64,000 nucleotides of DNA. Source: a virus. The stretch covers positions 1-64,000 of the IMG/VR virus record IMGVR_UViG_3300048687_000070, one strand, 5' to 3'. The notes beneath the pieces were generated by a model. That model did not search any database. It saw only the letters and a program-made list of their open reading frames with translations, and was not told where the DNA came from. Numbering within the stretch: position 1 is the first letter of the stretch; every line of letters begins with the position of its first letter. Shown here in pieces: positions 13,824-52,577 of this stretch. The position numbers were made by a program, and so were the translations under genes.

Positions 13824-13978
13824 CCTGCGGTTCACCCCAGAGCGTGACCGGTCGTCACACACGGGTGTGAAAAGAGTGCAGCAACCCTTGCACTGTGCAC
13901 CCTTTCCGGCATATGACATTGAACGCGAAAGTAAGTAGCGAGGAGGCCGCGCCCAGACCCCGCCCGGCCTACCGCCCG

Positions 13979-22311: not shown

Positions 22312-22493
22312 ACGCCGGAGACGCCTACCGCACCGCACAGTTCCTCGCCGACGACGGCCACACCGACTCGGACGCGCTCACCCACGCCGACATCGACGTC
22401 GCCGCAGACCTCGCCGGCGCCAACCGGCCCGAGACAAGCAACGACCGGCACACCGTCCGCCTCGCCCTCGACACCATCGGAGGCCAGCAATGA
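22308..22493 (+). CDS. Hypothetical early protein
   Basis: Overlap-coupled ORF. Confidence 0.5.
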   Translation: MNAGDAYRTAQFLADDGHTDSDALTHADIDVAADLAGANRPETSNDRHTVRLALDTIGGQQ

Positions 22494-22981: not shown

Positions 22982-23089
22982 CTCGCCGGGCCGCCGGATG
23001 ACACCGGCCGGCCAGGCCCGGCGCCCAAACGAAAAGCCCCGGATGCTTCCGACACCCGGGGGACCACCAGCATCCCACAGGGAGATCCC

Positions 23090-24133: not shown

Positions 24134-24255
24134 CCAACAACCACAGACCGCCGTGTCGAGCCCGCCCCCAGGGCTCCACGGCACCAGGCCCGCCGGGGCG
24201 ACCCCCCCCCGGAGCCCCGGCGGGCCTCCCTTCGCACACCCTTTTGGAGCTCGAA

Positions 24256-24546
24256 ATGCAGAACATGAGCCGCGAGGAACTCATCAGCCTCCTCGACAAC
24301 ATCAAGGACCGCGTTGCCTCCGGTGACAGCCTCGAAGGCAATCTCCAGTACCTGCTCGCCGATGTTGATGCCGAACATCCCTACGACGTAGCCGCCACCT
24401 TCCGAGTCGGCAACCGGACGGGGCAGGGCGGCTGCATCCTGATCGGCGCCGACTCCGGCCCTCTCGGCTGCAAGTGCGGCGACACGGTCGGCCCGTTCGA
24501 CGCGAAGACCGGCCGCTGCGAGACCTGCACCGAGGCCGCCGCATGA
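24256..24546 (+). CDS. Hypothetical protein
   Basis: RBS GGAG; C-terminal CxC...CxxC. Confidence 0.5.
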   Translation: MQNMSREELISLLDNIKDRVASGDSLEGNLQYLLADVDAEHPYDVAATFRVGNRTGQGGCILIGADSGPLGCKCGDTVGPFDAKTGRCETCTEAAA

Positions 24547-25418: not shown

Positions 25419-26287
25419 GCTTCCCCGCCCCCACCCAGCCGGCCACCCAGATCGGGCAGGCCACCGCGATCGAGCTCTCGCGTGCCGAGGCCGAGGTCAA
25501 GGCCGCCGTGTTCGTCGCCAAGCAGAACCCGCGCAACATCCAGACCGCGCAGGCCGAAATGCGCTTCGTGTGCAGCCAGCTCGCCGTCGCCGAGAAGGCG
25601 TTCTTCTCGTACCCGAAGGCGAAGCAGATCATCAAGGGCCCGTCCATCCACCTCGCCCGCGAACTCGCCCTGATCTGGGGCAACCTCCAGCACGGAACCA
25701 TGGAACTGTCCCGCGACACCGCGGCCGGCCAGTCCGAGATCCTCGCCTACGCCTGGGACCTGGAGCGCAACTCCCGCAGCTCCCAGATCTTCATCGCCCC
25801 GCACGTCACGGACACCAAGCAGGGCAAGAAGAACCTCACCGATCTTCGCGACATCTACGAGAACAACAGCAACCTCGGCGCCCGCCGCCTCCGAGAAGCG
25901 ATCTTCGCGGTCCTGCCGGCCTGGTTCGTCGCCGAAGCCGTGACGCTCTGCCAGCAGACGATCGACAACGGCAACGGAACCCCGCTCGCAGAGCGGATCG
26001 AAACGGCCGTCCGCGAGTACAAGGCCGTCGGCGTCACGCTCCAGCAGCTGGAGAAGAAGCTCGGCCGACCGCAGGCCGAGTGGACCGACAAGGACGCAGG
26101 CGAACTCCAGGTCATCTACCAGTCCGTGTACCGCGGCGAGATCACCCGCGACCAGGCCTTCCCGCCCGAGCACATCACCGGCGCCGAGATCACCAAGAAG
26201 CGCGAGACGCCGACGGCGAACGACCACGCGCAGGAACCCAAGCCCGAGCCGGCCGACTGGCCCGAGACCGTACAGCCCCCGCAGTAG
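25415..26287 (+). CDS. Putative single-strand annealing recombinase
   Basis: Directly after RecE-like gene; IKGPSIHLARELA...WGN, AWDLE motifs. Confidence 0.6.
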   Translation: MSFPAPTQPATQIGQATAIELSRAEAEVKAAVFVAKQNPRNIQTAQAEMRFVCSQLAVAEKAFFSYPKAKQIIKGPSIHLARELALIWGNLQHGTMELSRDTAAGQSEILAYAWDLERNSRSSQIFIAPHVTDTKQGKKNLTDLRDIYENNSNLGARRLREAIFAVLPAWFVAEAVTLCQQTIDNGNGTPLAERIETAVREYKAVGVTLQQLEKKLGRPQAEWTDKDAGELQVIYQSVYRGEITRDQAFPPEHITGAEITKKRETPTANDHAQEPKPEPADWPETVQPPQ

Positions 26288-28974: not shown

Positions 28975-30000
28975 ATGCCCTGGGTCCGTTTGGACGATCG
29001 CTTCCCCTCGCACCGCAAGGTGGCGCTGCTGTCCGATCGCGCCTTCAGGCTGTACATCTCGGGCCTCTGCTGGTGCTCGGAGAACCTCACCGAAGGCAAG
29101 ATCCTCGACCGTGAACTCGCCGTCGTGTCCCGAGTCCGAGGCCTCAAGGCCGCCGCGAAAGAGCTCGAAGAAGCCCACCTGTGGGATCGGGTTAGCGGCG
29201 GCTGGCAGATCCACGACTACCTCGAATACAACCCCGAGCGCGCCAAGATCCAGGCCGATCGTCAGGCCAATGCCGCCCGGCAGCAGTCATTCCGCGACCG
29301 GAAGAAAGCGGAGCGCGCAGCCAAGAAGGTCGCCGAAGAAGCAGCCCGTAACGCCATGCGTAACGGCGTTACGGACCCTGCCGAGAACGGCGAAAACGAT
29401 ACGACGGCGACAGGAACGCGACACGACGACGACACGACGACGCGAGAAAGCCACGCGCAAAATCAGCGATCGTCGCAGGTCAGCGAGATTCGTAACGCCG
29501 TTAATAACGGCACCCCCGTCCCACTCCCCGTAGTTCCTCCTACGGAGGAACTACAACAACAGAAAGCTAGCTACGAAGAGCCCGCCCGCATCGGCGATCG
29601 CCCCCGCATCCCCGATGCCTCGCGCCCCCTCGTCGACAAGATCACCGCCCAAGGCATGGTCGTCGGCTGGGACCTGCAGCCCAACGAGTGGTTCCTCATC
29701 GACGCCCTCATCCGTCGCTGCGGCGTGGACGCCCTCGTCGTCTCCGCGGTCGGCAGCTGGCAGGGCGCCCGCAGACAGCCCCGTTCCGCCCGCTACTTCA
29801 TCCCGGCATGGCGAGACGTGCCCGACGCGATCACCCCAGAAGCGCCCCACGAACACTCCCTGCCCATCGCGGTCGGACAGGTCGTTCCGATCAACGGCCA
29901 GCAGCGCCCCGCCACTTCAGACCTCCGCACCCAACAGGCGATCGAGACCGGTCGCCGCCTGCAAGCCCTCGCCGACGCCAAGAACCAGGAGAACCGATGA
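28975..30000 (+). CDS. Replication initiator-like protein
   Basis: MPWVRLDDRFPSHRKV...WQIHDYLEYNP N-terminus; central low-complexity region with DNA repeats, as in lambda O-type initiators. Confidence 0.7.
   Translation: MPWVRLDDRFPSHRKVALLSDRAFRLYISGLCWCSENLTEGKILDRELAVVSRVRGLKAAAKELEEAHLWDRVSGGWQIHDYLEYNPERAKIQADRQANAARQQSFRDRKKAERAAKKVAEEAARNAMRNGVTDPAENGENDTTATGTRHDDDTTTRESHAQNQRSSQVSEIRNAVNNGTPVPLPVVPPTEELQQQKASYEEPARIGDRPRIPDASRPLVDKITAQGMVVGWDLQPNEWFLIDALIRRCGVDALVVSAVGSWQGARRQPRSARYFIPAWRDVPDAITPEAPHEHSLPIAVGQVVPINGQQRPATSDLRTQQAIETGRRLQALADAKNQENR
29347..29511. repeat. Putative replication origin iterons within initiator gene
   Basis: CGTAACG at 29347, 29359, inverted at 29367, and 29491; ACACGACG repeats 29401-29440. 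Confidence 0.55.
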
Positions 30001-38322: not shown

Positions 38323-38358
38323 AAGGCCCCCGTCAGGCATTGGCCTGGCGGGGGCCTT
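38323..38358 (+). terminator. Terminator ending early operon
   Basis: AAGGCCCCCGTCAGGC-ATTG-GCCTGGCGGGGGCCTT. Confidence 0.7.
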
Positions 38359-39432: not shown

Positions 39433-40026
39433 CTAGGCGCCGGCCACGCTAGTGCTCATGCCAACGATCAGCGCTTTGCCGGTGGAGCGACTCACTAAGC
39501 CTTGGGCGACTAGTAGCTGAAGTCCACGGCGGACGGTGAGTTGACTGACGCCGAACTCGAAGGCCAAGGACACGACTCCAGGAAGCTGCGCCCCCGTGTC
39601 GTAATCTCCGGACGTGATCTGTTGCGAGATCTGCTCGGCGACAAGCTCAGGCATTGAGATCTTCCGCCGCCTGCTCTCCTTGTCCACGGCGAGACCTCGC
39701 AGGAAGAGAGCTTCCTTCGCGGCCTTGGCGCGAGGAGATGCGGCCTGCTTAGGGGGCTGCCAGCCTTGATCCCGATCAGCGACAGTCGGGACGTGTGCCC
39801 GATTGTGGATTGCGCCCTCGGTGCGTATCGCGGCGAGTTCAGCGACTTCCGCCTCCCGTCGAGACTCGAACCACTGGACTCGCTCCCCGCGGACATCTGG
39901 CCACCAGGTCTTGGCGTGTTCCAGGGCGTGCTGCTTCCACCGGCGGTGCGGGTTGCTAGAGATCCCGACGTACAGGAGGCGGTCGTCCGCGTCGTAGAGG
40001 CGGTATAGAGCGGTCCGTTCCGTCAT
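39433..40026 (-). CDS. GIY-YIG domain / GntR winged-helix fusion
   Basis: ALYRLYDADDRLLYVGIS...R...E...HN, then GAQLPG...EFGVSQLTVRRGL. Confidence 0.8.
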   Translation of the reverse strand: MTERTALYRLYDADDRLLYVGISSNPHRRWKQHALEHAKTWWPDVRGERVQWFESRREAEVAELAAIRTEGAIHNRAHVPTVADRDQGWQPPKQAASPRAKAAKEALFLRGLAVDKESRRRKISMPELVAEQISQQITSGDYDTGAQLPGVVSLAFEFGVSQLTVRRGLQLLVAQGLVSRSTGKALIVGMSTSVAGA

Positions 40027-40772
40027 TCTGGCCTCCGGCTATACCGTGCCAGCGCGCCCTGGGTTGTGGACGCTTCCTGAAGTGAGAGCGCCCATGGTCC
40101 GGTGTTGGTGTCCATGTCCTTGCCGAAGCCCACCCACTTGCCGATCATGCGTGTGCCTGTCGGCTCGACGAGCATCTGGATCGCCCCGTGGTAGCGGGCG
40201 CCCCGGTAGTAGCCGTCGGTTGCGGTCTGCTCAACCCAGGTGCCGGTAATGACGCTGCCGTCGACCGTCAGGTCCATGGTCAGCGGGGAGTCCGGGTTCG
40301 TGGACGCGCCAGGGAGGGATCGGACCGTGAGGCGGTTCCCACGCTGGAGCACGAGCACGTAGTGCTGGGCGACGAAGGTCTCGTCGCGCCCACTGGAGTA
40401 GAACTCGTAGCGCGACAGCCAGACACCGTTGTAGCTGCTCCGGGGGGACGCCTGGGGTACCGGGCCCGGGGCCGGCGGGGCGACACCTTCCGGAGATGGC
40501 CGGACGTCGTGACCACCAGAGCCGTCTTCGGAGACGTGAGGGAAGTTGGCCGACGCGGAGAAGCCGAGCTCCTCGACCGCCATTCCGGTTACTGCTTCAA
40601 GGGCGCGAATGTAGGGCGGCTGAGGGCGCCGTGTCTGCCCTGACTCCCATCGTTGGACGAGCCGCTTGTTGGCTGCTGCTGCCCCGTTCTCCTTGAGCGC
40701 GGATGCGAAGCCCTCCTGACTCAGGAGCATGCCCATGCGGACAGCCCGGAGTGTGGCGTTTGGTGTCGTCAT
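40023..40772 (-). CDS. XRE-HTH regulator with C-terminal beta-barrel domain
   Basis: LRAVRMGMLLSQEGFA...VQRWESG; all-beta C-terminal domain. Confidence 0.75.
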   Translation of the reverse strand: MTTPNATLRAVRMGMLLSQEGFASALKENGAAAANKRLVQRWESGQTRRPQPPYIRALEAVTGMAVEELGFSASANFPHVSEDGSGGHDVRPSPEGVAPPAPGPVPQASPRSSYNGVWLSRYEFYSSGRDETFVAQHYVLVLQRGNRLTVRSLPGASTNPDSPLTMDLTVDGSVITGTWVEQTATDGYYRGARYHGAIQMLVEPTGTRMIGKWVGFGKDMDTNTGPWALSLQEASTTQGALARYSRRPE

Positions 40773-40919
40773 GCAAGTAACGGTAGCCAGCGAAGCTAGG
40801 GAATGACACCGGTTTGACGCCCTAATGACGTCAAAGGGACGTCACGTTTGCCGTCGCGGGAAGCGGAGGTGCGGGGTCACTGTGTGGTCATGACTGATCA
40901 CGGCATGCCCCCGGCTCGG

Positions 40920-41138
40920 CTATTCCTCGGTCCCTGGCGTCTCGCTGGCGCCAGCGGCCAGCACGATCCGCCGCACCTGTTGGCGGGTGTACCCCGTCGC
41001 GTCGCAGATGTCCTTCTGGGTTACGCCGTCGCTGTCGGCGTCCCGAATGGCGACAGCAAGCGCCTGGCGCAGGACTTCAGTCCGCATCTCGGCGTCCCTG
41101 AACTGCTTCGCCACCTGCTCCAGTGATCGCTTGTCCAT
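40920..41138 (-). CDS. Small HTH repressor (Kor/TraR-like position)
   Basis: GVTQKDICDATGYTRQQVRRI; divergent from transfer operon. Confidence 0.7.
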   Translation of the reverse strand: MDKRSLEQVAKQFRDAEMRTEVLRQALAVAIRDADSDGVTQKDICDATGYTRQQVRRIVLAAGASETPGTEE

Positions 41139-41212
41139 GCAAGTTAGTGTCCCATCCGCTGGCATGTGACATGACGTTACGTGAACAGCTCGAAATTGCC
41201 TAGGTCTAACGC

Positions 41213-41242
41213 TTGACGGAGGGAACATCGTGTTCCTATGGT
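41213..41242 (+). promoter_or_regulatory. Transfer-operon promoter with operator
   Basis: TTGACG-18 nt-TATGGT with palindrome GGAACA-TCG-TGTTCC (41222-41236) in the spacer. Confidence 0.7.
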
Positions 41243-41346
41243 GGAGCTCGTTGGAAGGCAAGACGCCAACAAAAATGGCCCCGCCCGGTGTTGGAGCACC
41301 GAAGCGAGGCCTAGGTCAGACGCCCTCAGTACAGGGAGACCAACTC

Positions 41347-41790
41347 ATGAGCACAACCGTACAGCCCGCGCCCCTGGCGCTGGAGTCCACTTCCCGTCTC
41401 GTCCCGGCGATGGTTGGCCGGCCGGGCGCCACGCAGACCGTATGGATCACCTGCCCCGCATGGTGCTCCCAGGACCACCTCGCTGACCGTGAGGTCGCGA
41501 TCGAGGACATCGACCACTACTCGACCCCGTCGGGCTGGAGTGTCGGTTCGATCCTCGCCCCTGACGAGGCCGTGCACGACCTGTACGTGCGGGTCCACTC
41601 GGACCCGATGCACGAGCTGCCCGCTCTGCGTGAGGCGCATGTCCTCCTCGGCAACGGCTCGCCGTTCGACTCGTACCTGACGCCGGACATGGCGGAGGCG
41701 ACGGCCGACGAGCTGGTCGCCATGGCCTCCCAGATCCGCCAGGCCGCCACCATCGCCCGCGAGCAGCAGGTCGGGGAGGTGTCGTCATGA
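41347..41790 (+). CDS. DUF6907-like protein
   Basis: CPAWCSQDH...DIDH; first gene of operon. Confidence 0.65.
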   Translation: MSTTVQPAPLALESTSRLVPAMVGRPGATQTVWITCPAWCSQDHLADREVAIEDIDHYSTPSGWSVGSILAPDEAVHDLYVRVHSDPMHELPALREAHVLLGNGSPFDSYLTPDMAEATADELVAMASQIRQAATIAREQQVGEVSS

Positions 41791-42005
41791 CGACCACCCT
41801 GAGCCCCGCCGACGTTGCCGCCCACGAGCTGGCCTCCTATGTCCGTCCCCGCCGGATCCTGCAGCGTTTCCCGGCTGGTGGCCCGCGCGGCTCCTGGCCG
41901 GCGGAGGAGTACGCGAACCAGCGTCGCCTGGAGGGTCAGCCCGCCGAGGTCGTGATGGATCTTCGGTCTGACGCGTTCCTGGTGATCGTCCGGGAGGCGT
42001 CGTGA
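41787..42005 (+). CDS. Hypothetical protein
   Basis: ATGA coupling. Confidence 0.55.
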   Translation: MTTTLSPADVAAHELASYVRPRRILQRFPAGGPRGSWPAEEYANQRRLEGQPAEVVMDLRSDAFLVIVREAS

Positions 42006-42265
42006 GTGGCTCTCGGTTGACGTCCGCGGTGCAGGCGGTGATTGCGGTCGGTCGGGCGATGCGGGCTGCGGATCCGTTGCCGGATGCGTCGCCGTGGCTG
42101 GTGTTTGAGCTGCGGGATCCGGCCGGCGAGCTGCTTTTTGACGGTCATCTGTCGTGGCTGGGTGCGGAGCGGGTGGTGGCGGTGTTGGAGGCGGCTGCGG
42201 CCGTGCAGCACCGTCGGCCGGCCGCTCCGACTCGCCCGCGGTTGCATCTGGTGCGTAACCCCTAG
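42002..42265 (+). CDS. Hypothetical protein
   Basis: GTGA coupling. Confidence 0.5.
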   Translation: MSGSRLTSAVQAVIAVGRAMRAADPLPDASPWLVFELRDPAGELLFDGHLSWLGAERVVAVLEAAAAVQHRRPAAPTRPRLHLVRNP

Positions 42266-42350
42266 ACCGCCGCGGTCGACGGTCGATCCCCCCATCCCGT
42301 CGGCCGCGGCGCCCACCCACACCCCAACTTCCCGAGAGGGCTTGATCGTG

Positions 42351-42590
42351 ATGTCTCCGTTCCTGTCCGACGCCGATCTGGGCGTCACCGACATCGGCCG
42401 CAAGAAGCGCGCCTCGACGACCGTCGGCGACGTGTCGGACGCCTACGCCGCCCAGCTGATCGACGAGTACCTGGCCGCGCGCGCCGCCCGCAGCTTCGAG
42501 CTCATGGCGTTGATCCGCGACCACGCCGCCGCGATCGACCCGCTCCTCGTCGACGAGCTCGACGGCATCGACTACCCGGCCGCCGCCTGA
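42351..42590 (+). CDS. Hypothetical protein
   Basis: ORF MSPFLSDADLG... Confidence 0.5.
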   Translation: MSPFLSDADLGVTDIGRKKRASTTVGDVSDAYAAQLIDEYLAARAARSFELMALIRDHAAAIDPLLVDELDGIDYPAAA

Positions 42591-42733
42591 TGTGGGGCCA
42601 GCTGCTGGTCATCGTCATCGTCGGCGCCCTGTTCCTCGCGACGGGCTGGCTTCGGTGGCGCATCGAGCAGCCGGAGCGGGTCGAGTGTCGTGGCCACGGC
42701 TGCTGCCACACCTGCTGCAAGGGAGCTGCGTGA
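42590..42733 (+). CDS. Small membrane protein with Cys-rich tail (not in ORF track)
   Basis: MWGQLLVIVIVGALFLATGW...CRGHGCCHTCCKGAA; TGATG coupling at both ends. Confidence 0.55.
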   Translation: MWGQLLVIVIVGALFLATGWLRWRIEQPERVECRGHGCCHTCCKGAA

Positions 42734-43113
42734 TGGCCGCCGTTGACATCACGTCGTTCGGCTACCTGCACGACGGGCCGCCGGCCGCGCACCTGACGGT
42801 CGATCTGCGCCAGCACTTCCGCGACCCGCACGTTAGCCCGGAGCTGCGCCACATGACCGCCGACGACGAGCCGGTCCGTACCGCGGTCCTGAACACGCCC
42901 GGCCTCTCTGCGCTGGTGCAGGCCGTGACCGCGGCGGTCGAGGCGTTCGCGTCCGGCCCGTCCGCCGGTGCCGTCACGGTCGCCGCCGGGTGTGCGGGAG
43001 GCCGGCATCGCGCTCCCACATTTGCCCGCGCTCTTGCCGACCTGCTTTCTGCAGCCGGCCACCAAATCACCGTCCAACACCGCGACATGGACAAGCCCGT
43101 CGTCCAGCGGTGA
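42733..43113 (+). CDS. Stand-alone RapZ C-terminal domain protein
   Basis: ITSFGYLH...DLRQHFRDPH...AGCAGGRHRA...HRD matches RapZ SFGFK...DVRFLPNP...GCTGGxHRS...HRD. Confidence 0.85.
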   Translation: MAAVDITSFGYLHDGPPAAHLTVDLRQHFRDPHVSPELRHMTADDEPVRTAVLNTPGLSALVQAVTAAVEAFASGPSAGAVTVAAGCAGGRHRAPTFARALADLLSAAGHQITVQHRDMDKPVVQR

Positions 43114-43120
43114 ACCGGCA

Positions 43121-43162
43121 GCCCCGATGGTCGCAGGCCGGGTTCGACTCCCGGCCGGGGCA
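43121..43162 (+). ncRNA. tRNA-like minihelix (acceptor stem and T arm only)
   Basis: GCCCCG...CCGGG-TTCGACT-CCCGG-C-CGGGGC-A; no D or anticodon arm. Confidence 0.55.
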
Positions 43163-43201
43163 CGCACCACCAACTCGTTCACCGAATCAAAGGAGTACGT
43201 C

Positions 43202-43432
43202 ATGGGCCTGTGGCCGCGCAGCAACCGTTTCGAGGACGCCCGTCAGCAGCCGATCAGCGAGAGCAGCACGCGTGAGGCGGTGTCGAACCTGTCCGCGATG
43301 GCGAAGGCGTCGGAGGCCTCCGGGGACAGCCAGTCGGCGGCGACGGCGCGGGAGGCGTTGGACATGGAGCTGGACACCCTCCACGAGATCAGGAACCTGC
43401 AGGCGCACGGATTCAAGCAGCCGAAGCGCTAA
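43202..43432 (+). CDS. Hypothetical protein
   Basis: RBS AAGGAG. Confidence 0.55.
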   Translation: MGLWPRSNRFEDARQQPISESSTREAVSNLSAMAKASEASGDSQSAATAREALDMELDTLHEIRNLQAHGFKQPKR

Positions 43433-43575
43433 CCCCCTGGTCGCCGCGGGCGGGTGTTCACGGTTCCCCTCCGTCCCGCCCGCGGCTCCCAGCCTCGGCC
43501 CGAGTTCCCGTCGTATGCCGCAAGGCAGACCGAGGCGCGCACCACCAACCGAACCCAACCCGAGAGGAGCCCTTC

Positions 43576-43725
43576 ATGGGCCTGCGCGACAAGATTTTTG
43601 GCACGCCGGAGCAGCAGGAGCACAACGCCCGCTTCAACAACCGGGACACCGACCCGGACAGCGAGGAGTACCTGGCCTCCCACGACCGGGTCATCGCCGC
43701 GGAGAAGACGGCGAAGAAGGCGTGA
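43576..43725 (+). CDS. Small hypothetical protein (not in ORF track)
   Basis: RBS GAGGAG; MGLRDKIFGTPEQQEH...KKA*. Confidence 0.5.
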   Translation: MGLRDKIFGTPEQQEHNARFNNRDTDPDSEEYLASHDRVIAAEKTAKKA

Positions 43726-43907
43726 TGGCCGCCTACCACTGCAAGCAGGACGAGACGCACGCCGAACTGCACGCCGGCGGGGCGAACCTGCCGTGCACCC
43801 AGTGCAAGGCCCACGCGAACAGCATGCCCATCGCGGGCGGCTGTCTGATCGTGACGCTCGTGTCCACCGCCATTGGCGCACTGCTGTACGGCCGGAAGAA
43901 GACCTGA
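43725..43907 (+). CDS. Small membrane protein
   Basis: MAAYHC...CTQC plus C-terminal TM. Confidence 0.5.
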   Translation: MAAYHCKQDETHAELHAGGANLPCTQCKAHANSMPIAGGCLIVTLVSTAIGALLYGRKKT

Positions 43908-43939
43908 ATCCGAACCAACCGCCTGGAGAGGAGGCCGTC

Positions 43940-44143
43940 ATGCGGCCCCTGAAAGTCCTGCTCGTGACGGCCGTCCTCGCCCTGTTCGGCGCCTGCCCGT
44001 CGCTCGCCACCGCCCTCGGTGACGCGCTCGGCCTCGTGTTCGGCGGCGCCGCACAGATCGTCACCCAGCCCGCGCTGTTGCTCGCCGTGGCCCTCGGTGG
44101 CCTCGTTGCCGTCGTCGCCCGGCGTGGCCGGAGGGCCATCTGA
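43940..44143 (+). CDS. Small hydrophobic Spd-like protein
   Basis: 67 aa, hydrophobic throughout, upstream of traB-like gene. Confidence 0.55.
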   Translation: MRPLKVLLVTAVLALFGACPSLATALGDALGLVFGGAAQIVTQPALLLAVALGGLVAVVARRGRRAI

Positions 44144-44430
44144 TGCCGATCACCCTGCCCGCGTTCCTGACCCGCCATAAGGAGAGCCCGGTGTCCGAGA
44201 CCACCGCCCCTGCCGAGAACGGACCCAATGTCCTGATGCGGTTCCTCACCCTGGGAGGAGCTATCGCGATCGTCACCGGGTCCGGCAGCTACGGGGCCGA
44301 GGACTGCCACTGGAAGTGCCTCGGCTGCGACGACACGGACAACGGCATCCCCCGATGGGGCTGGAACGCGCGGGACGCAGCCAACGCCCACGCGGGGCAG
44401 TGCCGGGCGATGCCGAAGCCGGGGGCGTGA
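44143..44430 (+). CDS. Mobile-element transfer-associated protein
   Basis: MRFLTLGGA...WKCLGC...ANAHAGQCRAMPKP. Confidence 0.55.
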   Translation: MPITLPAFLTRHKESPVSETTAPAENGPNVLMRFLTLGGAIAIVTGSGSYGAEDCHWKCLGCDDTDNGIPRWGWNARDAANAHAGQCRAMPKPGA

Positions 44431-44431
44431 C

Positions 44432-45244
44432 GTGAACAGCCCACCTTCCCGCGCCCGGTGGGATCCGCTCGTCGCGGTATCCCTGATCGCCGGTGTCGGC
44501 TTCACTGCGATCGCCGAGTACCAGCTCGCCAGAAAGATCGGCTCCCCGGTACCCGTGGCGGTACTACTGCCCGTGGCATTGGACGTGTACGTGGTCGCCG
44601 CCATCCGCCGCTCTCGCGGCCGGGACATCGCACTCGCACTCCTCCTCATGGGCGTCGCGCAGGTGTCGGCGCACATGCTCGAAGCCGGCGTCGTCGAGAT
44701 TTCAGTACCGCTCGTCGCGGCCGTCTCCGTCCTGGTACCGCTCGTCATCTGGCGGGTGCACGCGCTGGCGGTACTGCCGAAGAAGCAGCCCGCCGGTACC
44801 GGTACCGCCCCGGCCGTGAGCGAGCCGGTTCCGGACGCCACCGTCGAGCGAGTACCGGCATCCGCGCCCGCCCCGGTACCGCCTGCGGTACCGGTACCGC
44901 CCGCGAGCCGCCCGGAACTCGAGGCCGTACCGGAAGCAGTACCGGCCCCGGTACCGGTACGGCCGCGCCGCCCGAACAGCCAGAAGACGCCGCGCAGTAC
45001 CGCCCCGAAGTCCCGGCAGAAGAAGACCGGTACCGGCTCGTTCGACGACCACGTCCGCACCGCCATCGGCTGGCTCGGCGACGAACCGGACCTGTCCGGT
45101 ACCGCCATCGGCGAGCGGCTCGGTACCGGCGACTCCTACGGCCGCCGCGTGCGCCGCGAAGCCCTCGCGAAGGCCGGTACCGAACCGGCTCCTGGCCCCG
45201 AGCACCGGGACCACAACACCGACCAAATCCTCACCGGAAGCTGA
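44432..45244 (+). CDS. SpdB/DUF2637-like membrane protein with C-terminal HTH
   Basis: About 4 TM helices, Pro/Val linker, LSGTAIGERLGTGDSYGRRVRR HTH; directly upstream of FtsK-type gene. Confidence 0.7.
   Translation: MNSPPSRARWDPLVAVSLIAGVGFTAIAEYQLARKIGSPVPVAVLLPVALDVYVVAAIRRSRGRDIALALLLMGVAQVSAHMLEAGVVEISVPLVAAVSVLVPLVIWRVHALAVLPKKQPAGTGTAPAVSEPVPDATVERVPASAPAPVPPAVPVPPASRPELEAVPEAVPAPVPVRPRRPNSQKTPRSTAPKSRQKKTGTGSFDDHVRTAIGWLGDEPDLSGTAIGERLGTGDSYGRRVRREALAKAGTEPAPGPEHRDHNTDQILTGS
44518..45181. repeat. Intragenic GGTACC palindrome array
   Basis: 12 perfect GGTACC and about 22 GTAC cores counted by hand, in more than one reading frame. Confidence 0.85.
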
Positions 45245-45247
45245 CCC

Positions 45248-47389
45248 ATGAGCGCCCACCACACCGCGCCGGCCGACCCGAAGCCCGCCCTGAAACTCGT
45301 TCCCTCGACCGACACGGCCGTGCAGGTGTCGACTCGCCCGGAGCGGCGCCGCCTGCGCGCGGACCGACTGCGGCGCATCGTCGTCGCCACCCGCAACAAC
45401 CCGGGGTACCGGCTCGCCGTCCGGCACGGCGCCTACACCCTCGGCGGGACCCGCATCCTGACCCGTCGCGCCTGGGACGCACGGACCGCGGCCCGGTACG
45501 AGCGGATGATGCGCATCGCCGAAGCGTCCGGGAACGAGGAGGCCACACGGGTGTGGGAGCAGCGGGCCCACGCCTACCGGTTCGCCCGGCGCCGCGGACG
45601 CATGGAACTCCTGCAACTGATCCTCAACGCGCCCAAGGCGGTAGCCATGGGCGCGGGCGCAACCGCTGGCGTTCTCCTGCTGCTCGGGATGATGCTGGCC
45701 GCTGCCAGGGAAGACATCAGTGACGTCCTCGTCCCGCTCAACGCCGTGATTCAGCTGGTCAGCTGGGTTGCGTTCATCGCGGGCGTCGTCTGGCGGCCGT
45801 TGCTGGTGTCGCTGCCGTTCCTCGCTCTGGCCGGGGCGTGGGCGGTCGGACGCCACCAGAAGTCCGCACCGGTATGGGCACTGCCCGTCGACCCCGGCGA
45901 GCAGGGCATCGTCCCGGACGAGAACGCCATCATGCGGGCGCTGGGCAAGCTGAGCATCGCGGAGCTCAATGCGGCCATCAAGGAGGGCTGGCAGCCGCGT
46001 TGGGTGCAGGGCACCGTCCGCTCCGGCAACGGCTATCACGCCCAGCTGCAGCTTCCTCTTGGCGCCCCCGTCGAGATGATCATCAAGAAGAAGAATGTTC
46101 TCGCGCACAACCTGCTCCGCAAGCCCGTCGAAGTGTGGCCCACCGAGCCGCCCCGCATGCCTGGCGTCCTCGACCTGTGGGTCGCCGACCAGGGCTCCCT
46201 GTCCGGGAAGATCCCGAGTTGGCCGCTGCTGCACGAGGGCACGACCGACTACTTCGAGGGCGTTCCCCTCGGCGTGTCCCAGCGCGGTGATCCGATCATC
46301 GGGAAACTGATGGCCGCGAACTACATGGTCGGCGGGATCATGGGATCCGGTAAATCGTCGCTGGTCATCTCGCTGCTTCTGGGCGCCGCCCTCGATCCGA
46401 TCGTCGACATCGAGGCCTACGTCATGGCCTACAACGTCGACTACGACCCGCTCAAGCCCCGCATGAGCGTCCTGGTCAAGGGCGACGACGACGAGCAGCT
46501 GAAGACCGCCCTCGACCGGCTGCGCAGCCTGACCAACGAGGTCACCGAACGCGGCAAGCTGCTGGAGGAGCTCGGCGGCGAGACCACCAAGCTGACGCGG
46601 GAGCTTTCGCTGAGGGACCAGCGGATGCGGCCCAAGGTCATCGTTTTCGACGAGTGCCACGAGCTGTTCATGCACAAGGGCTACGGCAAAGAGGCCGCTG
46701 AACTGGCCATTCGCGTCATGAAGAAGGCCCGCAAGGTCGGTATCACCCTCATCTGGGTCACCGTGTCGCCGACCGCCGACAGCATCCCGCGCGACGTCAC
46801 CCGCAACACGAGTCACCGTGTCGCGTTCGCCGTCGGCGACCACGTCGCCAACGACGGACTGCTCGGCTCCGGCCGCCACAAGGCCGGCATCACCGCCACC
46901 ACACTCATCCCCGGCGAGGACGTCGGCACCGCCGTCACCGTCGGCTTCACCAGCAAGCCGTTCGAGGTGGTGCGCGCCCACTACGTGGCCCGCGACCCGG
47001 AAAAGAACATCGACCAGGTCACGCCCGTCGTCGAGCGCTCCTTGACGGCGTACAAGCGCGGCGACGTGTGGGAGGTGCCCGCACCCGAGAGGGTCGACCA
47101 CCTCGTCGACATCGCGAAAGTCCTCGGCCACGAACCCAAGCTGCTCACCCAGGACGTCCTGCACGAACTCCACAACCTGAACCCGGACGTCTACGGCGAG
47201 TGGACGTTCCGGGACCTGCGCAGCGTCCTCGACACGGCCGGCCACGGCGAGTACAAGACCGGCGGGCGCCAGCACGTCAGCCTCGACCGCATCCTCGACG
47301 CCATCGCCGCCCGCGACGAATACGCCTCCGAGGACGCCGTAGAGATCGGCTACAGCGAGGGAGGCGATGAGGGAGGAAGCGATACGTGA
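45248..47389 (+). CDS. traB: FtsK/SpoIIIE-family conjugative DNA translocase (TraB-like)
   Basis: N-terminal TMs; Walker A GIMGSGKSS; Walker B VIVFDECHE; KARKVGITLI; C-terminal winged-helix-like region; Spd-like neighbours. Confidence 0.85.
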   Translation: MSAHHTAPADPKPALKLVPSTDTAVQVSTRPERRRLRADRLRRIVVATRNNPGYRLAVRHGAYTLGGTRILTRRAWDARTAARYERMMRIAEASGNEEATRVWEQRAHAYRFARRRGRMELLQLILNAPKAVAMGAGATAGVLLLLGMMLAAAREDISDVLVPLNAVIQLVSWVAFIAGVVWRPLLVSLPFLALAGAWAVGRHQKSAPVWALPVDPGEQGIVPDENAIMRALGKLSIAELNAAIKEGWQPRWVQGTVRSGNGYHAQLQLPLGAPVEMIIKKKNVLAHNLLRKPVEVWPTEPPRMPGVLDLWVADQGSLSGKIPSWPLLHEGTTDYFEGVPLGVSQRGDPIIGKLMAANYMVGGIMGSGKSSLVISLLLGAALDPIVDIEAYVMAYNVDYDPLKPRMSVLVKGDDDEQLKTALDRLRSLTNEVTERGKLLEELGGETTKLTRELSLRDQRMRPKVIVFDECHELFMHKGYGKEAAELAIRVMKKARKVGITLIWVTVSPTADSIPRDVTRNTSHRVAFAVGDHVANDGLLGSGRHKAGITATTLIPGEDVGTAVTVGFTSKPFEVVRAHYVARDPEKNIDQVTPVVERSLTAYKRGDVWEVPAPERVDHLVDIAKVLGHEPKLLTQDVLHELHNLNPDVYGEWTFRDLRSVLDTAGHGEYKTGGRQHVSLDRILDAIAARDEYASEDAVEIGYSEGGDEGGSDT

Positions 47390-47532
47390 GGGAGAAATCC
47401 CTCCGCGCCTCCCCACCTGCCTCCCCACGCCTGACCTGCACAAAGGCCCGGTTGGGGAGGCAAGGGAGGCAAGGGAGGCAGCCCTCCCAAGACCCCGGAA
47501 AACGCGCTGCGGCCTCCCCTCGGCTGCCTCCC
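47359..47532. repeat. Putative clt (cis-acting locus of transfer) with GGGAGGCA repeats
   Basis: GGGAGGCA tandem at 47455, 47464, 47473; inverted TGCCTCCC at 47418, 47525; variants at 47359, 47371, 47406, 47511; directly 3' of traB. Confidence 0.7.
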
Positions 47533-47562
47533 TCCCCACCCCGACACCGAAGGAGAACCGGC

Positions 47563-48192
47563 ATGAGCGGCACGGTGAAAGTGCAGCAGATGACGGTCGA
47601 CGGGGCACCGTACACGTGCCCCGAGTGCGACTCGCACACGTTCACACTCGACGGCCACCCGGTCTTCGACGCGCTCCCCGCGATAGCCAACTGCGACTTC
47701 TCGCACCACTGGGACGACTCGTTGATCACCGGTGACACGCTCGTGATGATCCGCGGTTCGCGTACCGGCCGCCCCCGCGCCCACGACGAGGACACGTTCG
47801 ACGTCACCCACAACGGCATCCGGTTCGAAGGCACCCTCGTACCCGAACTCGTCTACGACGACCTCCGTCAGGCCGGCCGCATCTACTGGAAGCGGATCAT
47901 CAAGCCCACCGTGCGGAAGAAGAAGCGGGCCGCGCTGCGCACCCTCGCCCGCCCCGGAAAGCAGGCTGCACGCAAGGCCCGCGACGCCGCATCGGCAACC
48001 AAGGCCGCCACCATCGCCGCCGCCTGGACCGCCCAGACCGGCGGCTACCAAGACGACGCCGACTACCAGAGCGAGTCCGTCATCCCCTGCGGAGCGGGCT
48101 GCACCGACGGCTACTTCCCCCTCGACACCCATATCCACGGCGCCGCCCAAGTCCGGTGCTCCGTATGCCACGGAACCGGCGAAACCCTGTAA
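47563..48192 (+). CDS. Zinc-ribbon hypothetical protein
   Basis: RBS AAGGAG; CPEC, CGAGC, CSVCHGTG. Confidence 0.6.
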   Translation: MSGTVKVQQMTVDGAPYTCPECDSHTFTLDGHPVFDALPAIANCDFSHHWDDSLITGDTLVMIRGSRTGRPRAHDEDTFDVTHNGIRFEGTLVPELVYDDLRQAGRIYWKRIIKPTVRKKKRAALRTLARPGKQAARKARDAASATKAATIAAAWTAQTGGYQDDADYQSESVIPCGAGCTDGYFPLDTHIHGAAQVRCSVCHGTGETL

Positions 48193-48206
48193 GGAGATCC
48201 AACCCC

Positions 48207-48695
48207 ATGACCATGCCGCTGCCCGAGCCGCGCCCGACCATCCAGGCCGGGCAGCGGCAGCTCTCCCCGGAGACCCGGAAGATTCTCGACGAGATCGAGA
48301 CCGTGTACAGCAAGTCCGTACCGACATCGGTGCGCGTTGAGGAAGTGCCGCACCCGGCCCCGCCAGCCGTCCAGCAGCCCGGCCGGCCCCCCATGAGCCC
48401 GCGGGCGACCGGGGTGTCCGTGATGCTCGTCGCCGGCGGCTTCTTCTCCCTGTGCCTCGGCGCGGCGACCTCGATGGTCCTGTACTTCTCGCAGGCCGCC
48501 AACGAGACCGTCGTCATCACCCTGTGCGCGGCGCCCCCCGCCGTGTTCCTGTCGCTCGGCGCCCTCGTCAAGAAGATCCGCAAGGCGATGCCCGACGAGC
48601 ACCACCACCACTACGAGGCGCCAGTGTTCCAGGACCAGCGCACCACCCACACCGAGACCCGCGGCGTGTGGGCGCGCACCAACAACACGCAGTAG
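48207..48695 (+). CDS. Two-TM membrane protein (SpdD-like position)
   Basis: RBS AAGGAG; Pro-rich N-terminus, 2 TMs, HHHHYEAPV. Confidence 0.6.
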   Translation: MTMPLPEPRPTIQAGQRQLSPETRKILDEIETVYSKSVPTSVRVEEVPHPAPPAVQQPGRPPMSPRATGVSVMLVAGGFFSLCLGAATSMVLYFSQAANETVVITLCAAPPAVFLSLGALVKKIRKAMPDEHHHHYEAPVFQDQRTTHTETRGVWARTNNTQ

Positions 48696-48780
48696 TTGAC
48701 GCGTTGACGTGGGCGAACGTAACGTGTGATTCGCTGGTCTTAAGTGTCAAGAGGGCTACCTGATGCAGGTGGCCCTCTTT
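48696..48780 (+). promoter_or_regulatory. Putative late promoter followed by terminator/attenuator hairpin
   Basis: TTGACG(48696)-18 nt-TAACGT; hairpin AAGAGGGCTACCTG-ATG-CAGGTGGCCCTCTTT 48749-48780. Confidence 0.55.
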
Positions 48781-49545: not shown

Positions 49546-50655
49546 ATGCCGTCGCTCTCCCTCCTCGTGGACAACTTCAACGACAACGACATGGGCCCCG
49601 AATGGGGCGACTCCTACGCCGGCGCCACCGAGACCGGAGGCCGGGCCCGCGTCCCCGTCGTAGCAGGAACCTACGCCGGCTACCAGACCGGCCGAGCCTG
49701 GACCTTCGCCGGCGCCACCGTCTACCTCAAGCTCGCCACCAGGCCCGCCGCATCCACAGGCACCGACGTGTCCGCGAACTTCCTCGTAACCAGCAGCGTC
49801 GACGGCACGTCGATCGGCTTCAAGTACAACGCGGTCACCGCCATGCTGCGCATGCAGTCGAACGTCGACTACTACGACACGGACGGCGTCGAGATCGCCT
49901 ACTCGGCGACCGATCACCTGTGGCTGAGACTCCGCGAAGACGGCACCAACGTCTACTGGGACACCTCGCCGAACGGCAGCACGTGGACCAACCGGCGGAC
50001 GCTCGCCACCCCCTCCTGGATTACAGCGGCCGTCGACACGTGCGCGCTCGACCTGTACGCCTACCGCAACGCAGGCGTCAGCGACTACGCCGAGTTCGAC
50101 AACGTCAACACGATGTCCGACGGGGCTGTGTGGGACCTGGTGGCAGCCCTGTCGGGCCAGTCGGCCCTCACGGCAGCAGTCAAGTCGACGACAGTCCTGA
50201 CAGCCGCACTGAGCGCGGAAAGCAGCCTCACCGCATCCGCCACACAGGCCCTGAACGTGTCGGCCGACCTCGCTGTAACAGGCACGCTGACCGCCGACCT
50301 GAACAACACCGAGATTCCGGAGGTGGCAGCAATGGCCGCCGGAGACCTCGACCTGTACATCGAGCAAGGCGCCACGTTCGTCCAGACGTACACGGTCACC
50401 GACCTCGACTTCACATGGGCCGGCTGGGCGGCGCGAGGCCAGATCCGGTCCGCCGCCAACAGCGCGGGCGAACTCCTCCTCGACCTCACCGCACACCTGA
50501 CCGTCGATGGGCCCGCCGTGCGCCTCGCCATTCCCGCCACCGTCACCCAGACCCTCACCCGCAACGGGCGCTGGGACCTGGAGATGGTCAACGGGCCGAC
50601 CGTCGTCCGCATCCTCAACGGGCGCGTCCACATCAGCCCGGAGGTGACCCGGTGA
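49546..50655 (+). CDS. Virion structural protein (lectin-like N-terminus, BppU-like C-terminus)
   Basis: WLRLREDG...WDTSPNG; DLYIEQGATF...WDLEM...RILNGRVHISPEVTR. Confidence 0.6.
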   Translation: MPSLSLLVDNFNDNDMGPEWGDSYAGATETGGRARVPVVAGTYAGYQTGRAWTFAGATVYLKLATRPAASTGTDVSANFLVTSSVDGTSIGFKYNAVTAMLRMQSNVDYYDTDGVEIAYSATDHLWLRLREDGTNVYWDTSPNGSTWTNRRTLATPSWITAAVDTCALDLYAYRNAGVSDYAEFDNVNTMSDGAVWDLVAALSGQSALTAAVKSTTVLTAALSAESSLTASATQALNVSADLAVTGTLTADLNNTEIPEVAAMAAGDLDLYIEQGATFVQTYTVTDLDFTWAGWAARGQIRSAANSAGELLLDLTAHLTVDGPAVRLAIPATVTQTLTRNGRWDLEMVNGPTVVRILNGRVHISPEVTR

Positions 50656-52577
50656 AAATCCAGGTCACCGGCGAAACCACCGCCGACGAGATCACCGTCA
50701 ACGGCGGCAAGCCCTCCACCGTCATCGAAGTCGCCGCCGGGCTCGTCTCCTCCGTCAACGGGCGCACCGGCGGAGTCGACGGCCTCGCCGAAACCGCCGC
50801 CATCCCCGGCATCGCCGCCGACGTCGCCACCGGCATCAGCGACGCCGCGGTCGGCGCCCACAACGGGCAGACCGCAGGCGTGCATGGCATCCCCGACACG
50901 ACGGCGCTCCTCACCGCCGTCCCGTTCGACGACGACGCCATCCGCGACATCACCGCCAACTCGCAGGCGGGCACCAGTAGTCATGCGGCCCGCGCCGACC
51001 ACACACATGGCGGAGGCGGCGGGAGCGGCCTCACCGGCGTCTACGACGTCACCCGCGGGCCGTACAACGCTGTCGGCAACGGCAGCCACGACGACCTCGA
51101 TGCGATCCAGGACGCGCTCGACGACGCGTATGCAGCCGGCGGCGGCATCGTCTACCTGCCGCCCGGACGCACCTACGCGATCAGCGACTACCTGCACATC
51201 CTCACCGGGACGACGGTCCTAGCGCACGGGGCCACCATCAAGGGCATCGCCAACCGCGGCCTCGTGAAGCTGTTCCGGGACTCGGAGACGACGACGACCG
51301 GCTACAACGGGCACTCCCGGATCCGGATCCGTGGCGGTATCTGGGACGTCAACGCCGCCAACGCGGGCGTCGGCACGGTCACGGCGATCGTCGACGGATT
51401 CCTGATGGGCCACAACAACGACGTGCTCTTCGACGGCGTCACCGTGCGAAACGTGTCCGGCGCGCACGGCATCGACATGACTGCCTCGCAGAACGTGCGG
51501 ATCATCGGCTGCCGCTTCGAAGGGTTCAAAGACAACACCAGCGACCAGTCCTCCAGCTTCCGTGAGGCGATCCAGCTCGACTACGCGATGACCGGCTCTG
51601 GTATCAACGGCGCCTTCGACAACACGCCTTCGCGGAACGTGTACATCGAGGGCTGCTACTTCGGGCCGTCCTCCCGCCTCGGCGGCTTCGGGCGTGCGGT
51701 CGGCTCCCACACCAGCGTCAGCGCGACCGTCTGGTGCGAGAACATCCACATCCGTGGCTGCCGCATCGAAGCCACCACGCAAGAGGGCATCCGTGCCTAC
51801 GCGTGGCGCAACGCCGTCATCGCCGACAACATCATCTCCGGAACCGGCCTCTCCGGAATCATGGTCACCGGGCCCGACCCGGCCGTCGCCGGATACGCCA
51901 ACCTGTGCCAGAACATCAGCGTCGACAACAACACCGTCGCCGCACCCGGCTCCGCCAGCGGCAGCCCCATCCGCGTCACCGGATACGCCACCGCCCGGCC
52001 CACCGGCATCACCATCACCCGCAACACCGTGACCGGATCCCTGTCGACCGGCATCTACGTGTCCCAGGCCGACACCCCGCAGATCGCCACCAACCGAATC
52101 CTGGCCTGCACCAGCAGCAGCATCTACGCGATCAACAGCGCCGCTCCGCACATCGCGACCAACCATGTCAACGGAGCTGGCGGTGCCAGCATCGGCGTCG
52201 ACACCTGCACCGGCGGACACGTCACCGGCAACGACGTCGAAGGCGCCGGAGGCCACGGCATCCTCATCGCCGGCGCCTCCAACGTCAGCGTCGCCACCAA
52301 CCGCGTCGTCGGCGCCATCGGATCAGGCATCCGGGCTGCAGGCACCGGCACGGTCCGGCCCCGGATCATCGGCAACACCATCCTCCGGAACGGCGTCGCC
52401 GCCACCTTCGGGCTCGACGTCGCCGCCTCGGCCACCGACGCCCTGGTCATCAACAACGACCTCACCGGCTCGACATGGCCCGGCAGCACCGCCTACAACC
52501 TGGTCGGCACCCGGCAAATCCTCGACTGGACAGGCGCCGTAGGCGTCACCGCCCCCGGCCAGAACCTCGCCAGCTAG
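50652..52577 (+). CDS. Tailspike / right-handed parallel beta-helix protein
   Basis: YNAVGNGSHDDLDAIQDALD...GGIVYLPPGRTY pectate-lyase-like start; repeated IxxNxI beta-helix rungs. Confidence 0.85.
   Translation: MKIQVTGETTADEITVNGGKPSTVIEVAAGLVSSVNGRTGGVDGLAETAAIPGIAADVATGISDAAVGAHNGQTAGVHGIPDTTALLTAVPFDDDAIRDITANSQAGTSSHAARADHTHGGGGGSGLTGVYDVTRGPYNAVGNGSHDDLDAIQDALDDAYAAGGGIVYLPPGRTYAISDYLHILTGTTVLAHGATIKGIANRGLVKLFRDSETTTTGYNGHSRIRIRGGIWDVNAANAGVGTVTAIVDGFLMGHNNDVLFDGVTVRNVSGAHGIDMTASQNVRIIGCRFEGFKDNTSDQSSSFREAIQLDYAMTGSGINGAFDNTPSRNVYIEGCYFGPSSRLGGFGRAVGSHTSVSATVWCENIHIRGCRIEATTQEGIRAYAWRNAVIADNIISGTGLSGIMVTGPDPAVAGYANLCQNISVDNNTVAAPGSASGSPIRVTGYATARPTGITITRNTVTGSLSTGIYVSQADTPQIATNRILACTSSSIYAINSAAPHIATNHVNGAGGASIGVDTCTGGHVTGNDVEGAGGHGILIAGASNVSVATNRVVGAIGSGIRAAGTGTVRPRIIGNTILRNGVAATFGLDVAASATDALVINNDLTGSTWPGSTAYNLVGTRQILDWTGAVGVTAPGQNLAS

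Follow-up and report, generated by a model that had tools for sequence, protein, structure and literature searches.

A putative TraB-type DNA-transfer cassette in an integrase-bearing temperate phage from a soil metagenome

Two Streptomyces plasmid-phages, pZL12 and pFP4, have been reported both to conjugate and to form infective particles (PMC3583192, PMC4170104). Such elements are described as propagating and conjugating as episomes while also making infective particles (PMC4170104, citing Chen et al. 2012 on pFP4), and transfer of pZL12 is reported to require its tra gene (PMC3583192, citing a 2010 paper). Here we describe a related arrangement in an integrating phage: a cassette at 38.3–48.8 kb, centered on a TraB-type FtsK-like ATPase, that lies between the early and late operons of a phage on IMG/VR record IMGVR_UViG_3300048687_000070. 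The stretch analyzed, positions 1 to 64,000 (the window), is the first part of a single 88,184-bp record labelled linear and with a CheckV completeness of 100. The presence of a TraB-type cassette in an integrating phage is a real observation.

The closest described relative is pZL12, whose record (Streptomyces phage ZL12, GQ919031) is 90,435 bp, circular, and encodes ParA and ParB. In it a GntR-UTRA regulator is divergent from an operon that ends in pZL12.71c (similar to FtsK/SpoIIIE), followed by 70c and the terminase large subunit gene (TerL). Like pZL12, the window contains a tailed phage with an FtsK-like tra gene, membrane-protein neighbors and a divergent GntR-type regulator, in a block directly upstream of the terminase; virion genes and an FtsK-like tra module thus stand on one replicon, as in a plasmid-phage, and in the gene order of pZL12. 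The product of window gene 48207–48695 has 37% identity (E 7e-10) to pZL12.70c, which adjoins the pZL12 tra gene, and this is its only match in 50,697 phage records. As an episomal plasmid-prophage, pZL12 encodes ParA and ParB, whereas the 88-kb record has no match to the ParB_N or ParA (CbiA) profiles and encodes tyrosine integrases. The window TraB is barely alignable with the pZL12 Tra protein (hhalign probability 47%) and, unlike it, falls in a clade found in integrative and conjugative elements of actinomycetes (AICEs). The principle of a conjugating, virion-forming phage is already reported for pZL12 and pFP4; new here are the integrases, the lack of ParAB and a TraB of the AICE clade.

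The second group of relatives comprises the TraB-clt-Spd systems of plasmids and AICEs, of the pSVH1, pWTY27 and pCM32 type. These share with the window one membrane-anchored FtsK-like ATPase, short repeats at the 3' end of the tra gene, small membrane proteins encoded upstream, and a divergent repressor. Their clt regions carry direct 8-bp repeats recognized by the cognate TraB (PMC4447253), and the clt of pWTY27 covers 16 bp of traA and the adjacent 159 bp (PMC3583192), a mapped position at or just past the tra stop that is like that of the repeat cluster in the window. Unlike these systems the window cassette has no Rep, Int or att of its own, and its carrier is a phage with virion genes; its GntR domain is fused to GIY-YIG where theirs is joined to UTRA, and its small membrane proteins have no detectable similarity to annotated SpdB. 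AICEs are defined by their own Int, Rep and Tra between their own att sites (Ghinet et al. 2011), and only Tra is present at 38.3–48.8 kb.

Other precedents are more distant. FtsK/SpoIIIE-like proteins of the phrog_1358 family in actinophages (Gilgamesh, Jaresh, AndoPrime) belong to the same P-loop translocase superfamily; they are discussed in connection with host development, not transfer, and the available portion of that account describes no clt or tra operon (PMC13587820). The conjugative prophage Phi1207.3 and the tandems of a phage and an integrative and conjugative element (ICE) in Streptococcus are, like the window, phage-related and associated with contact-dependent movement, but according to the available portions of those reports they belong to a different phylum and apparently use a different mechanism, with the conjugation functions of the tandems on a separate ICE. 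Two AICE surveys, in their available portions, treat prophages only as material to exclude or as the ancestral source of modules. A literature search whose coverage largely excluded subscription papers and supplements found no account of an integrating phage that carries TraB, which is not proof of absence, and no paper in the searched literature brought AICE, capsid and Streptomyces together.

The TraB ATPase, its repeat cluster and its contexts

The ATPase encoded within the cassette is a full-length 713-aa protein with predicted N-terminal membrane helices (residues 131–154 and 159–182, by hydropathy) and Walker A and B motifs (Table 1). An earlier note, made from the sequence without database searches, had described this intact FtsK/SpoIIIE ATPase and proposed that it be compared with plasmid and AICE TraB proteins on one side and chromosomal FtsK on the other; the description holds, and the comparison falls on the plasmid side. 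The protein matches phrog_1358 (FtsK/SpoIIIE-like, E 1.2e-20), and its sequence matches in the PDB are to FtsK motors only. On NF007615, the equivalog model of chromosomal FtsK, it reaches only 24.7 bits where the cut-off is 1566. A plasmid search returned 16 records, mostly small actinomycete plasmids, and the protein aligns end to end over its 713 residues with the TraB of a 13.5-kb AICE-type Streptomyces plasmid (locus L065; 30% identity, E 3e-68). That plasmid has the canonical layout of GntR, spdB, FtsK/SpoIIIE protein (TraB), Prim-Pol, DUF3631, HTH and integrase; pCM32, also matched, encodes a TraB homologue, Prim-Pol, HTH and integrase, without GntR or an annotated spdB. Over its C-terminal ~90 residues the protein is conserved and can be aligned with plasmid TraB.

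In a large protein collection 870 proteins among 8000 candidates match at E <= 0.001, and the 120 matches listed (own protein aside) have 69–77% identity, with those that are named coming nearly all from Streptomyces. Homologues in AICE and prophage loci are 57–76% identical; over the homologue set as a whole the range is 48–76%, and 24 of these adjoin genes for Prim-Pol or an integrase. By tblastn, none of the 50,697 phage records matches at E 1e-5, and allowing E up to 1 yields only 16 weak partial matches. From these alignments we assign the ATPase with high confidence to the plasmid/AICE type of TraB and not to chromosomal FtsK.

Immediately behind the ATPase gene, where the earlier note had placed an 8-bp repeat cluster, GGGAGGCA is indeed present in five copies (three direct, two inverted) at 47418–47532, with only one more in the rest of the 88 kb. 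To place this in a wider frame we fetched 55 genome loci and nine IMG/VR loci encoding TraB relatives, each with 10-kb flanks, and counted words from 150 bp before to 350 bp after the traB stop in the 61 loci (window included) with sequence past that stop. The word AGGGAGGC occurs 215 times in these 30.5 kb of traB 3' ends and 56 times in the remaining 1,179 kb, a 148-fold enrichment. At least three copies are present within the 500-bp region in 42 of the 61 loci, and for the 7-mer GGGAGGC the figure is 52; some loci use GGGGAGGC in place of AGGGAGGC. The cluster is found across AICE, phage and other contexts, and we hold its conservation with high confidence. Because it recurs in this way at the traB 3' end and is so strongly enriched there, the GGGAGGC cluster very likely constitutes clt, the putative docking site, in this TraB clade, and AGGGAGGC is a candidate word for recognition by TraB across a large clade of elements. 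A recognition word of pSVH1 was also tried as the cassette repeat and rejected, with six scattered copies in the 88 kb and no cluster.

The phage unit that holds the cassette extends from its integrase gene at 15000–16397, transcribed leftwards, to ~80.4 kb. Because the GC content of the window is ~68%, genes were called by third-position GC (GC3). A long early operon (17981–38281) includes a replication-initiator homologue (28975–30000), the terminase small subunit (TerS), TerL, portal, protease and major capsid genes follow the cassette, and past the window there are genes for a major tail protein, a 1455-aa tape measure protein, tail proteins, an endolysin, a holin and a second tyrosine recombinase. 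The virion and lysis genes (TerS, TerL, portal, capsid, major tail, tape measure, endolysin, holin) all have strong PHROG matches, in agreement with the earlier view that the visible head, tail and lysis genes are intact, and with its integrase and replication initiator the phage looks complete. As had been noticed, the module contains no replication initiator, relaxase, integrase or flanking repeats: open reading frames (ORFs) of at least 100 aa at 38.3–48.8 kb give no integrase, Rep or relaxase match in family scans, direct repeats flanking the cassette are limited to chance-level matches of no more than 17 nt, and a tRNA scan of the window found none. The gene content supports a cassette whose integration and replication would depend on the phage.

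The same layout is seen elsewhere. Genes were called on all loci, their proteins were clustered by BLASTP, and cluster representatives were scanned against Pfam and PHROGs. A TraB gene call is present in 63 loci, the window counted (L054 and L055 have none), and 53 of these have at least 5 kb of downstream sequence; phage and unassigned contexts are counted among the 53, and AICE-like ones among all 63. Thirteen of the 53, including the window, have a phage context, in which genes for TerL, portal, prohead protease or capsid follow 1.6–6.8 kb downstream in the same orientation, frequently in the order MerR-like, HNH, TerS, TerL, portal, protease, capsid, adaptor and tail protein. Six phage-context loci are from isolate genomes, of six species; isolate loci with traB beside the terminase include L004, L006, L019, L020 and L041. 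One phage-labelled locus (L015) is doubtful, with its capsid-cluster gene on the opposite strand. The AICE pattern of Prim-Pol or related clusters plus an integrase, in many cases accompanied by a GntR-UTRA regulator and a nearby NUDIX gene, is present in 24 of the 63, and 17 of the 53 have neither context. The survey for terminase and TraB in the same slot that the earlier note had suggested is thus positive, and on gene order we have high confidence that the cassette-plus-phage layout recurs in other prophages.

Transfer of the phage genome and alternative readings

We lean, with moderate confidence, towards reading the 38.3–48.8 kb region as a self-contained, AICE-derived cassette for transfer of double-stranded DNA, occupying the variable slot that separates the early from the late operon in a temperate siphophage with an integrase, where it would move the genome of that phage. 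The phage genome would circularize, either by excision or after infection, and the tra operon would be derepressed from its own divergent control region. Membrane-anchored TraB hexamers would bind the GGGAGGC repeats behind traB through their C-terminal domain and pump the whole double-stranded phage genome, with clt in cis, into a neighboring hyphal compartment or a touching mycelium, while the small membrane proteins would help it cross the septal cross-walls. The incoming genome would then integrate by the phage integrase or enter lytic growth. That the phage genome would be the substrate is an inference from the cis position of clt, the absence of other replicon functions from the cassette, and the precedent of plasmid-phages.

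Were this so, a chromosome-integrating phage would gain a route of spread independent of receptors and virions, and one element would travel both by virion infection and by conjugation. Views of host range, phage resistance and the establishment of lysogeny in multicellular, compartmentalized bacteria would change, as would the place where the line between prophage and AICE is drawn, and predicted 'prophages' of Streptomyces would matter for gene flow, with TraB systems reported to mobilize chromosomal DNA too (PMC11571958). The gain is tempered by the precedent of the episomal plasmid-phages pZL12 and pFP4. We hold only tentatively, and with more doubt than belief, the wider proposition that AICE-type TraB-clt cassettes are routine in integrating temperate phages of mycelial actinomycetes and move whole phage genomes as naked double-stranded DNA between compartments and mycelia, with phages and AICEs forming a continuum of repeated cassette trading.

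The main rival, which we judge rather unlikely, is that the cassette is passive cargo: the transfer arm of an AICE recombined into the hypervariable early-late junction of the phage, maybe expressed, with no role in phage spread, and lost or swapped like other mosaic cargo. The observations that favor it weigh against transfer of the phage genome. Regulators and terminators of its own accompany the cassette, as they would an imported unit. In the TraB tree (a quick maximum-likelihood tree of 61 rows under LG+G4 with SH-aLRT support only, the short rows L028, L044, L052 and L061 having been dropped beforehand, and rooted on two plasmid TraBs that form long branches), copies from phage contexts lie intermixed with those from AICE and other contexts. 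Ten changes of the phage label are needed on this tree, at least eight of them forced by well-supported branches, and the label is barely clustered, 50 of 500 shuffles needing as few changes; such interleaving fits passive exchange as well as selection. Among structural relatives of the phage the cassette is also rare. A TraB profile run over the 80 IMG/VR loci with a TerL 61–91% identical to that of the window gives one clear match (L081, E 2.5e-33) and one weak match (L089), and a clear TraB is absent from all 22 such loci in which 8 kb or more of upstream sequence is available. Over the 10 kb ahead of TerS these loci have almost nothing in common with the early genes of the window, so they are relatives by structural module only, and this region is highly mosaic. 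In L072 a homologue of the last early gene is followed by TerS within ~3 kb, and ~14 kb including the cassette have no counterpart. Since most TerL relatives lack a clear TraB, the cassette is accessory in this lineage. Three further points tell against transfer on other grounds: the Pfam FtsK_SpoIIIE match of TraB falls just below threshold (23.8 bits, cut-off 24, E 3.6e-05), GGGAGGC has a Shine-Dalgarno-like core, and the contig is a soil-metagenome assembly holding parts of related phages in series, with some chimerism possible.

Passive cargo is less easily reconciled with the state of the cassette. All of its frames are intact, 12 of the 13 phage-context loci keep at least three GGGAGGC copies at the traB 3' end, and no remnants of Int, Rep or att are found. 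The earlier note had held that absence of the module from close relatives together with att boundaries of its own would point to an inserted AICE remnant; the first part is borne out for most structural relatives, but no att boundaries are present. The same slot is occupied by TraB-type genes in pZL12 and in two or more phage lineages with unrelated structural genes. In L081 a partial TraB-like gene at the contig start (26% identity by tblastn, Pfam FtsK_SpoIIIE E 2.4e-07) is followed by homologues of 48207, 52588 and TerS and then by a TerL 88% identical to that of the window. The slot is variable, with a TraB-type gene acquired at least twice in this lineage. Moreover, a clt in cis would make the whole replicon a substrate whatever the origin of the cassette.

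A further alternative, which we regard as decidedly improbable, is that TraB serves the phage only within a host, spreading its genome across the cross-walls of one infected or newly lysogenized mycelium, so that all compartments and spores carry the prophage or lytic growth reaches more compartments. The several small membrane proteins of the cassette would suit this, and Spd proteins of pSVH1 are reported to direct intramycelial spreading together with TraB; SpdB2 homologues on actinophages have been suggested by Thoma et al. 2015 to spread phage DNA (PMC4447253 for both). The data do not separate such use from intermycelial transfer; plasmid TraB serves both steps.

That the linkage of cassette and phage is an assembly artefact, a metagenomic chimera, is very improbable. 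The contig does come from a soil metagenome and has partial related phages on both sides, and in Logan's contigs of the source run, which are fragmented, 43.95–45.19, 48.62–49.03 and 50.58–52.51 kb are unbridged, gaps that are not evidence either way. However, in the likely source run, a public soil-metagenome run that contains 99% of sampled words of the stretch, depth is uniform at ~100–120 over the 20 kb of 36.0–55.9 kb, apart from low bins at 43968–44631 and 50608–51271 that coincide with breaks in Logan's contigs. This depth is not independent of the contig; weak but independent evidence is given by three other soil runs from other studies, which contain short identical pieces of the cassette and the packaging genes at depth 2–5. 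No RNA dataset was listed as containing the stretch, a negative that carries no information on expression. TraB also lies beside TerL in isolate genomes, and L081 independently joins a TraB-like gene to the same TerS/TerL lineage. A different role of the pump, whether as a kil-like brake on growth, as an exclusion device or mainly in mobilizing host chromosomal DNA, would agree with reports that traB-traR pairs act as kil-kor systems and that pocks reflect growth retardation (PMC4447253), but a conserved docking-repeat cluster in cis suits transfer and is not required by those roles, and we give it hardly any credence.

Other features of the cassette, its slot and the record

The coordinates of the cassette and of the main phage genes are collected in Table 1. 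Transmembrane (TM) segments were predicted by hydropathy with a simple window method; HTH denotes helix-turn-helix.

Table 1. Features of the cassette and of the phage unit that carries it, by position in the window.
Feature	Coordinates	Strand	Evidence
Tyrosine integrase of the cassette-holding phage unit	15000..16397	-	phrog_1 integrase, E 9.3e-39
Hairpin terminator closing the early operon, left limit of cassette	38323..38358	+	16-bp stem, -44.3 kcal/mol, z -5.5, 0/200 shuffles fold as well
GIY-YIG + GntR winged-helix fusion (regulator/nuclease)	39433..40026	-	Pfam GntR 6.3e-14, GIY-YIG 1e-07; phrog_3312 endonuclease 2.3e-20
XRE-type HTH protein with uncharacterized C-terminal domain	40023..40772	-	weak HTH_31, E 0.003
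Small HTH protein divergent from tra operon, candidate Kor-like repressor	40920..41138	-	weak HTH_23, MarR_2 and KORA matches; start codon chosen by GC3
Divergent control region	41139..41346		promoter-like TTGACG-18-TATGGT at 41213-41242, between 15-nt direct repeats 41198-41212 and 41309-41323
DUF6907 protein, first tra-operon gene	41347..41790	+	Pfam DUF6907 1.5e-16
RapZ C-terminal-domain protein	42592..43113	+	Pfam PapZ_C 2.4e-25, phrog_18111 1.4e-47
Three small ORFs, two with predicted membrane helices, Spd-like by position only	43722..44430	+	43722-43907 1 TM; 43940-44143 2 TM; no family matches
Four-TM protein with Pro-rich linker and C-terminal HTH-like end	44432..45244	+	hydropathy; own protein has no Pfam match
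GGTACC/CGGTACCG array inside the four-TM gene	44546..45181		12 of 25 GGTACC and 10 of 13 CGGTACCG copies of the 88 kb
Putative TraB-type FtsK-like double-stranded DNA translocase, intact 713-aa frame	45248..47389	+	Walker A GIMGSGKS at 363, Walker B VIVFDE at 464
clt-like GGGAGGC(A) cluster, direct and inverted, overlapping the traB stop	47358..47545		word counts; two long hairpins, z -4.6
Cys-rich protein (CxxC pairs)	47563..48192	+	translation; no family match; 47%-identity homologue in L071, same order
Two-TM protein, pZL12.70c homologue	48207..48695	+	hydropathy, 2 TM; phrog_19266 3.5e-38
Hairpin then U-rich tail UUUGCGUU, right limit of cassette	48749..48779	+	14-bp stem, z -3.3, 0/200 shuffles fold as well
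TerS, TerL, portal, protease and major capsid genes of the middle phage unit	53649..60241	+	PHROG: TerS 1.6e-39, TerL 3.3e-150, portal 2.5e-141, capsid 8e-62

The signals proposed in the earlier note for the borders and control of the cassette fared unevenly. The early-operon terminator at 38.3 kb is confirmed by the hairpin that forms the left limit, while the late promoter placed at 48.7 kb was missed by a consensus scan. The operator-bearing promoter stands in part: a promoter-like site does lie between two 15-nt repeats, but with one found against 0.8 expected it is not significant on its own. Divergent HTH regulators are present as described, in three leftwards-transcribed genes (39433–41138) with HTH matches that are partly weak. 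The GIY-YIG/GntR fusion is unusual and occupies the place of the GntR-UTRA Kor/TraR repressor of plasmids. Homologues of the XRE-type protein (61–63% identity) adjoin traB in the AICE-type loci L011 and L026, and those of the small divergent HTH protein (52–71% identity) have the same divergent position in eight other TraB loci.

DUF6907 clusters are among the commonest neighbors upstream of traB in the related loci, and in the window three small ORFs separate the DUF6907 gene from that of the RapZ C-terminal-domain protein. A stand-alone protein of the latter kind recurs upstream of traB in both phage and AICE contexts (L006, L032, L035 and L037, 69–76% identity; 67–76% with L092 included).

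The membrane proteins that the earlier note had called Spd-like are recovered as TM proteins by hydropathy, but without SpdB homology (BLASTP against the annotated spdB of L065 gave E 0.56), and the label is used here by analogy only. The four-TM protein, encoded directly upstream of traB, has the layout of SpdB2, a four-TM integral membrane protein in that position. It falls in a BLASTP cluster with 21 proteins encoded upstream of traB elsewhere, the representative of which matches DUF2637 (3.6e-17) and HTH_17 (7.7e-08). The GGTACC/CGGTACCG array within its gene is read in two frames, as PVP and GTG. The word is specific to the window, and the same place holds CGGGTACG arrays in L011 (8 of 11 copies) and L029 (8 of 18); the array is a possible second cis site, to which the HTH end encoded by its own gene might bind.

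Several proteins of other kinds were seen in the slot or beside it. A search with pZL12.70c by phmmer matches L071, L081, L082, L097, L124 and L131 besides the window. Directly upstream of the pZL12.70c/48207 homologue, in the position of TraB, L082 (2345–4357), L124 (4469–6490) and L131 (3818–5848) encode a ~670-aa protein, with a Walker A motif in two of the three. These have no Pfam match except a weak dsrm match (E 0.005) in the L131 protein; that of L124 aligns weakly with the TraB profile (hhalign probability 40%) and gives E 0.12 against pZL12.71c by BLASTP, and the three may be very divergent transfer ATPases. A family of ~713-aa ORFs without a Pfam match fills the same slot in L089 (3985–6123), L074, L093 and L094, with only the last ~42 residues similar to the C-terminal domain of TraB (59% probability). 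The membrane protein pZL12.73c, encoded beside the pZL12 tra gene, has homologues upstream of traB in L003, L009, L043, L059 and L060, and upstream of TerL in L099, L104, L107 and L111, structural relatives without a detectable TraB.

More than one phage unit is present in the 88-kb record. By self-BLAST, 1–3702 corresponds to 71394–75087 (80%), several pieces within 8.3–14.0 kb to 78.1–80.4 kb, and 21121–25421 to 85969–88184 (up to 94%). Window positions 1–14032 and record positions 71394–88184 contain, in series, portions of phages that are related yet distinct; a tail-end and lysis region is present in two copies at 73–89% identity, and an early region in two at up to 94%. This could be a real array of tandem prophages or a chimera of the metagenome assembly. 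The unit that follows the middle one opens with a different integrase (81215–82468), 23% identical to the first, and no common att core was found at the two integrase junctions in the record. A circular 88-kb contig, suggested by a reading frame that apparently crosses the ends, was dropped once self-BLAST had identified the ends as parts of related phages.

A second, Xer-like tyrosine recombinase, distinct from the integrase, is encoded near the right end of the middle unit at record positions 77066–78103 (L149:13066–14103; phrog_1, E 1.3e-35). Its probable counterpart, by flank, is window gene 7306–8325, the downstream positions 8333–8661 corresponding to 78080–78410 at 87%. The partial left-hand phage copy also encodes a Ku-like DNA-end-binding protein (9559–10479; phrog_4873, E 1.5e-62). 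Many of the TerL-relative contigs start ~580 bp upstream of TerL, at TerS, which would fit a genome end there. Between the cassette and TerS, 49546–52577 encodes two proteins well away from the tail genes, one LtfC-like and the other a 'tail spike' protein of 641 aa with a right-handed beta-helix; were the genome to end at TerS, these two genes would be at the far end of the packaged genome.

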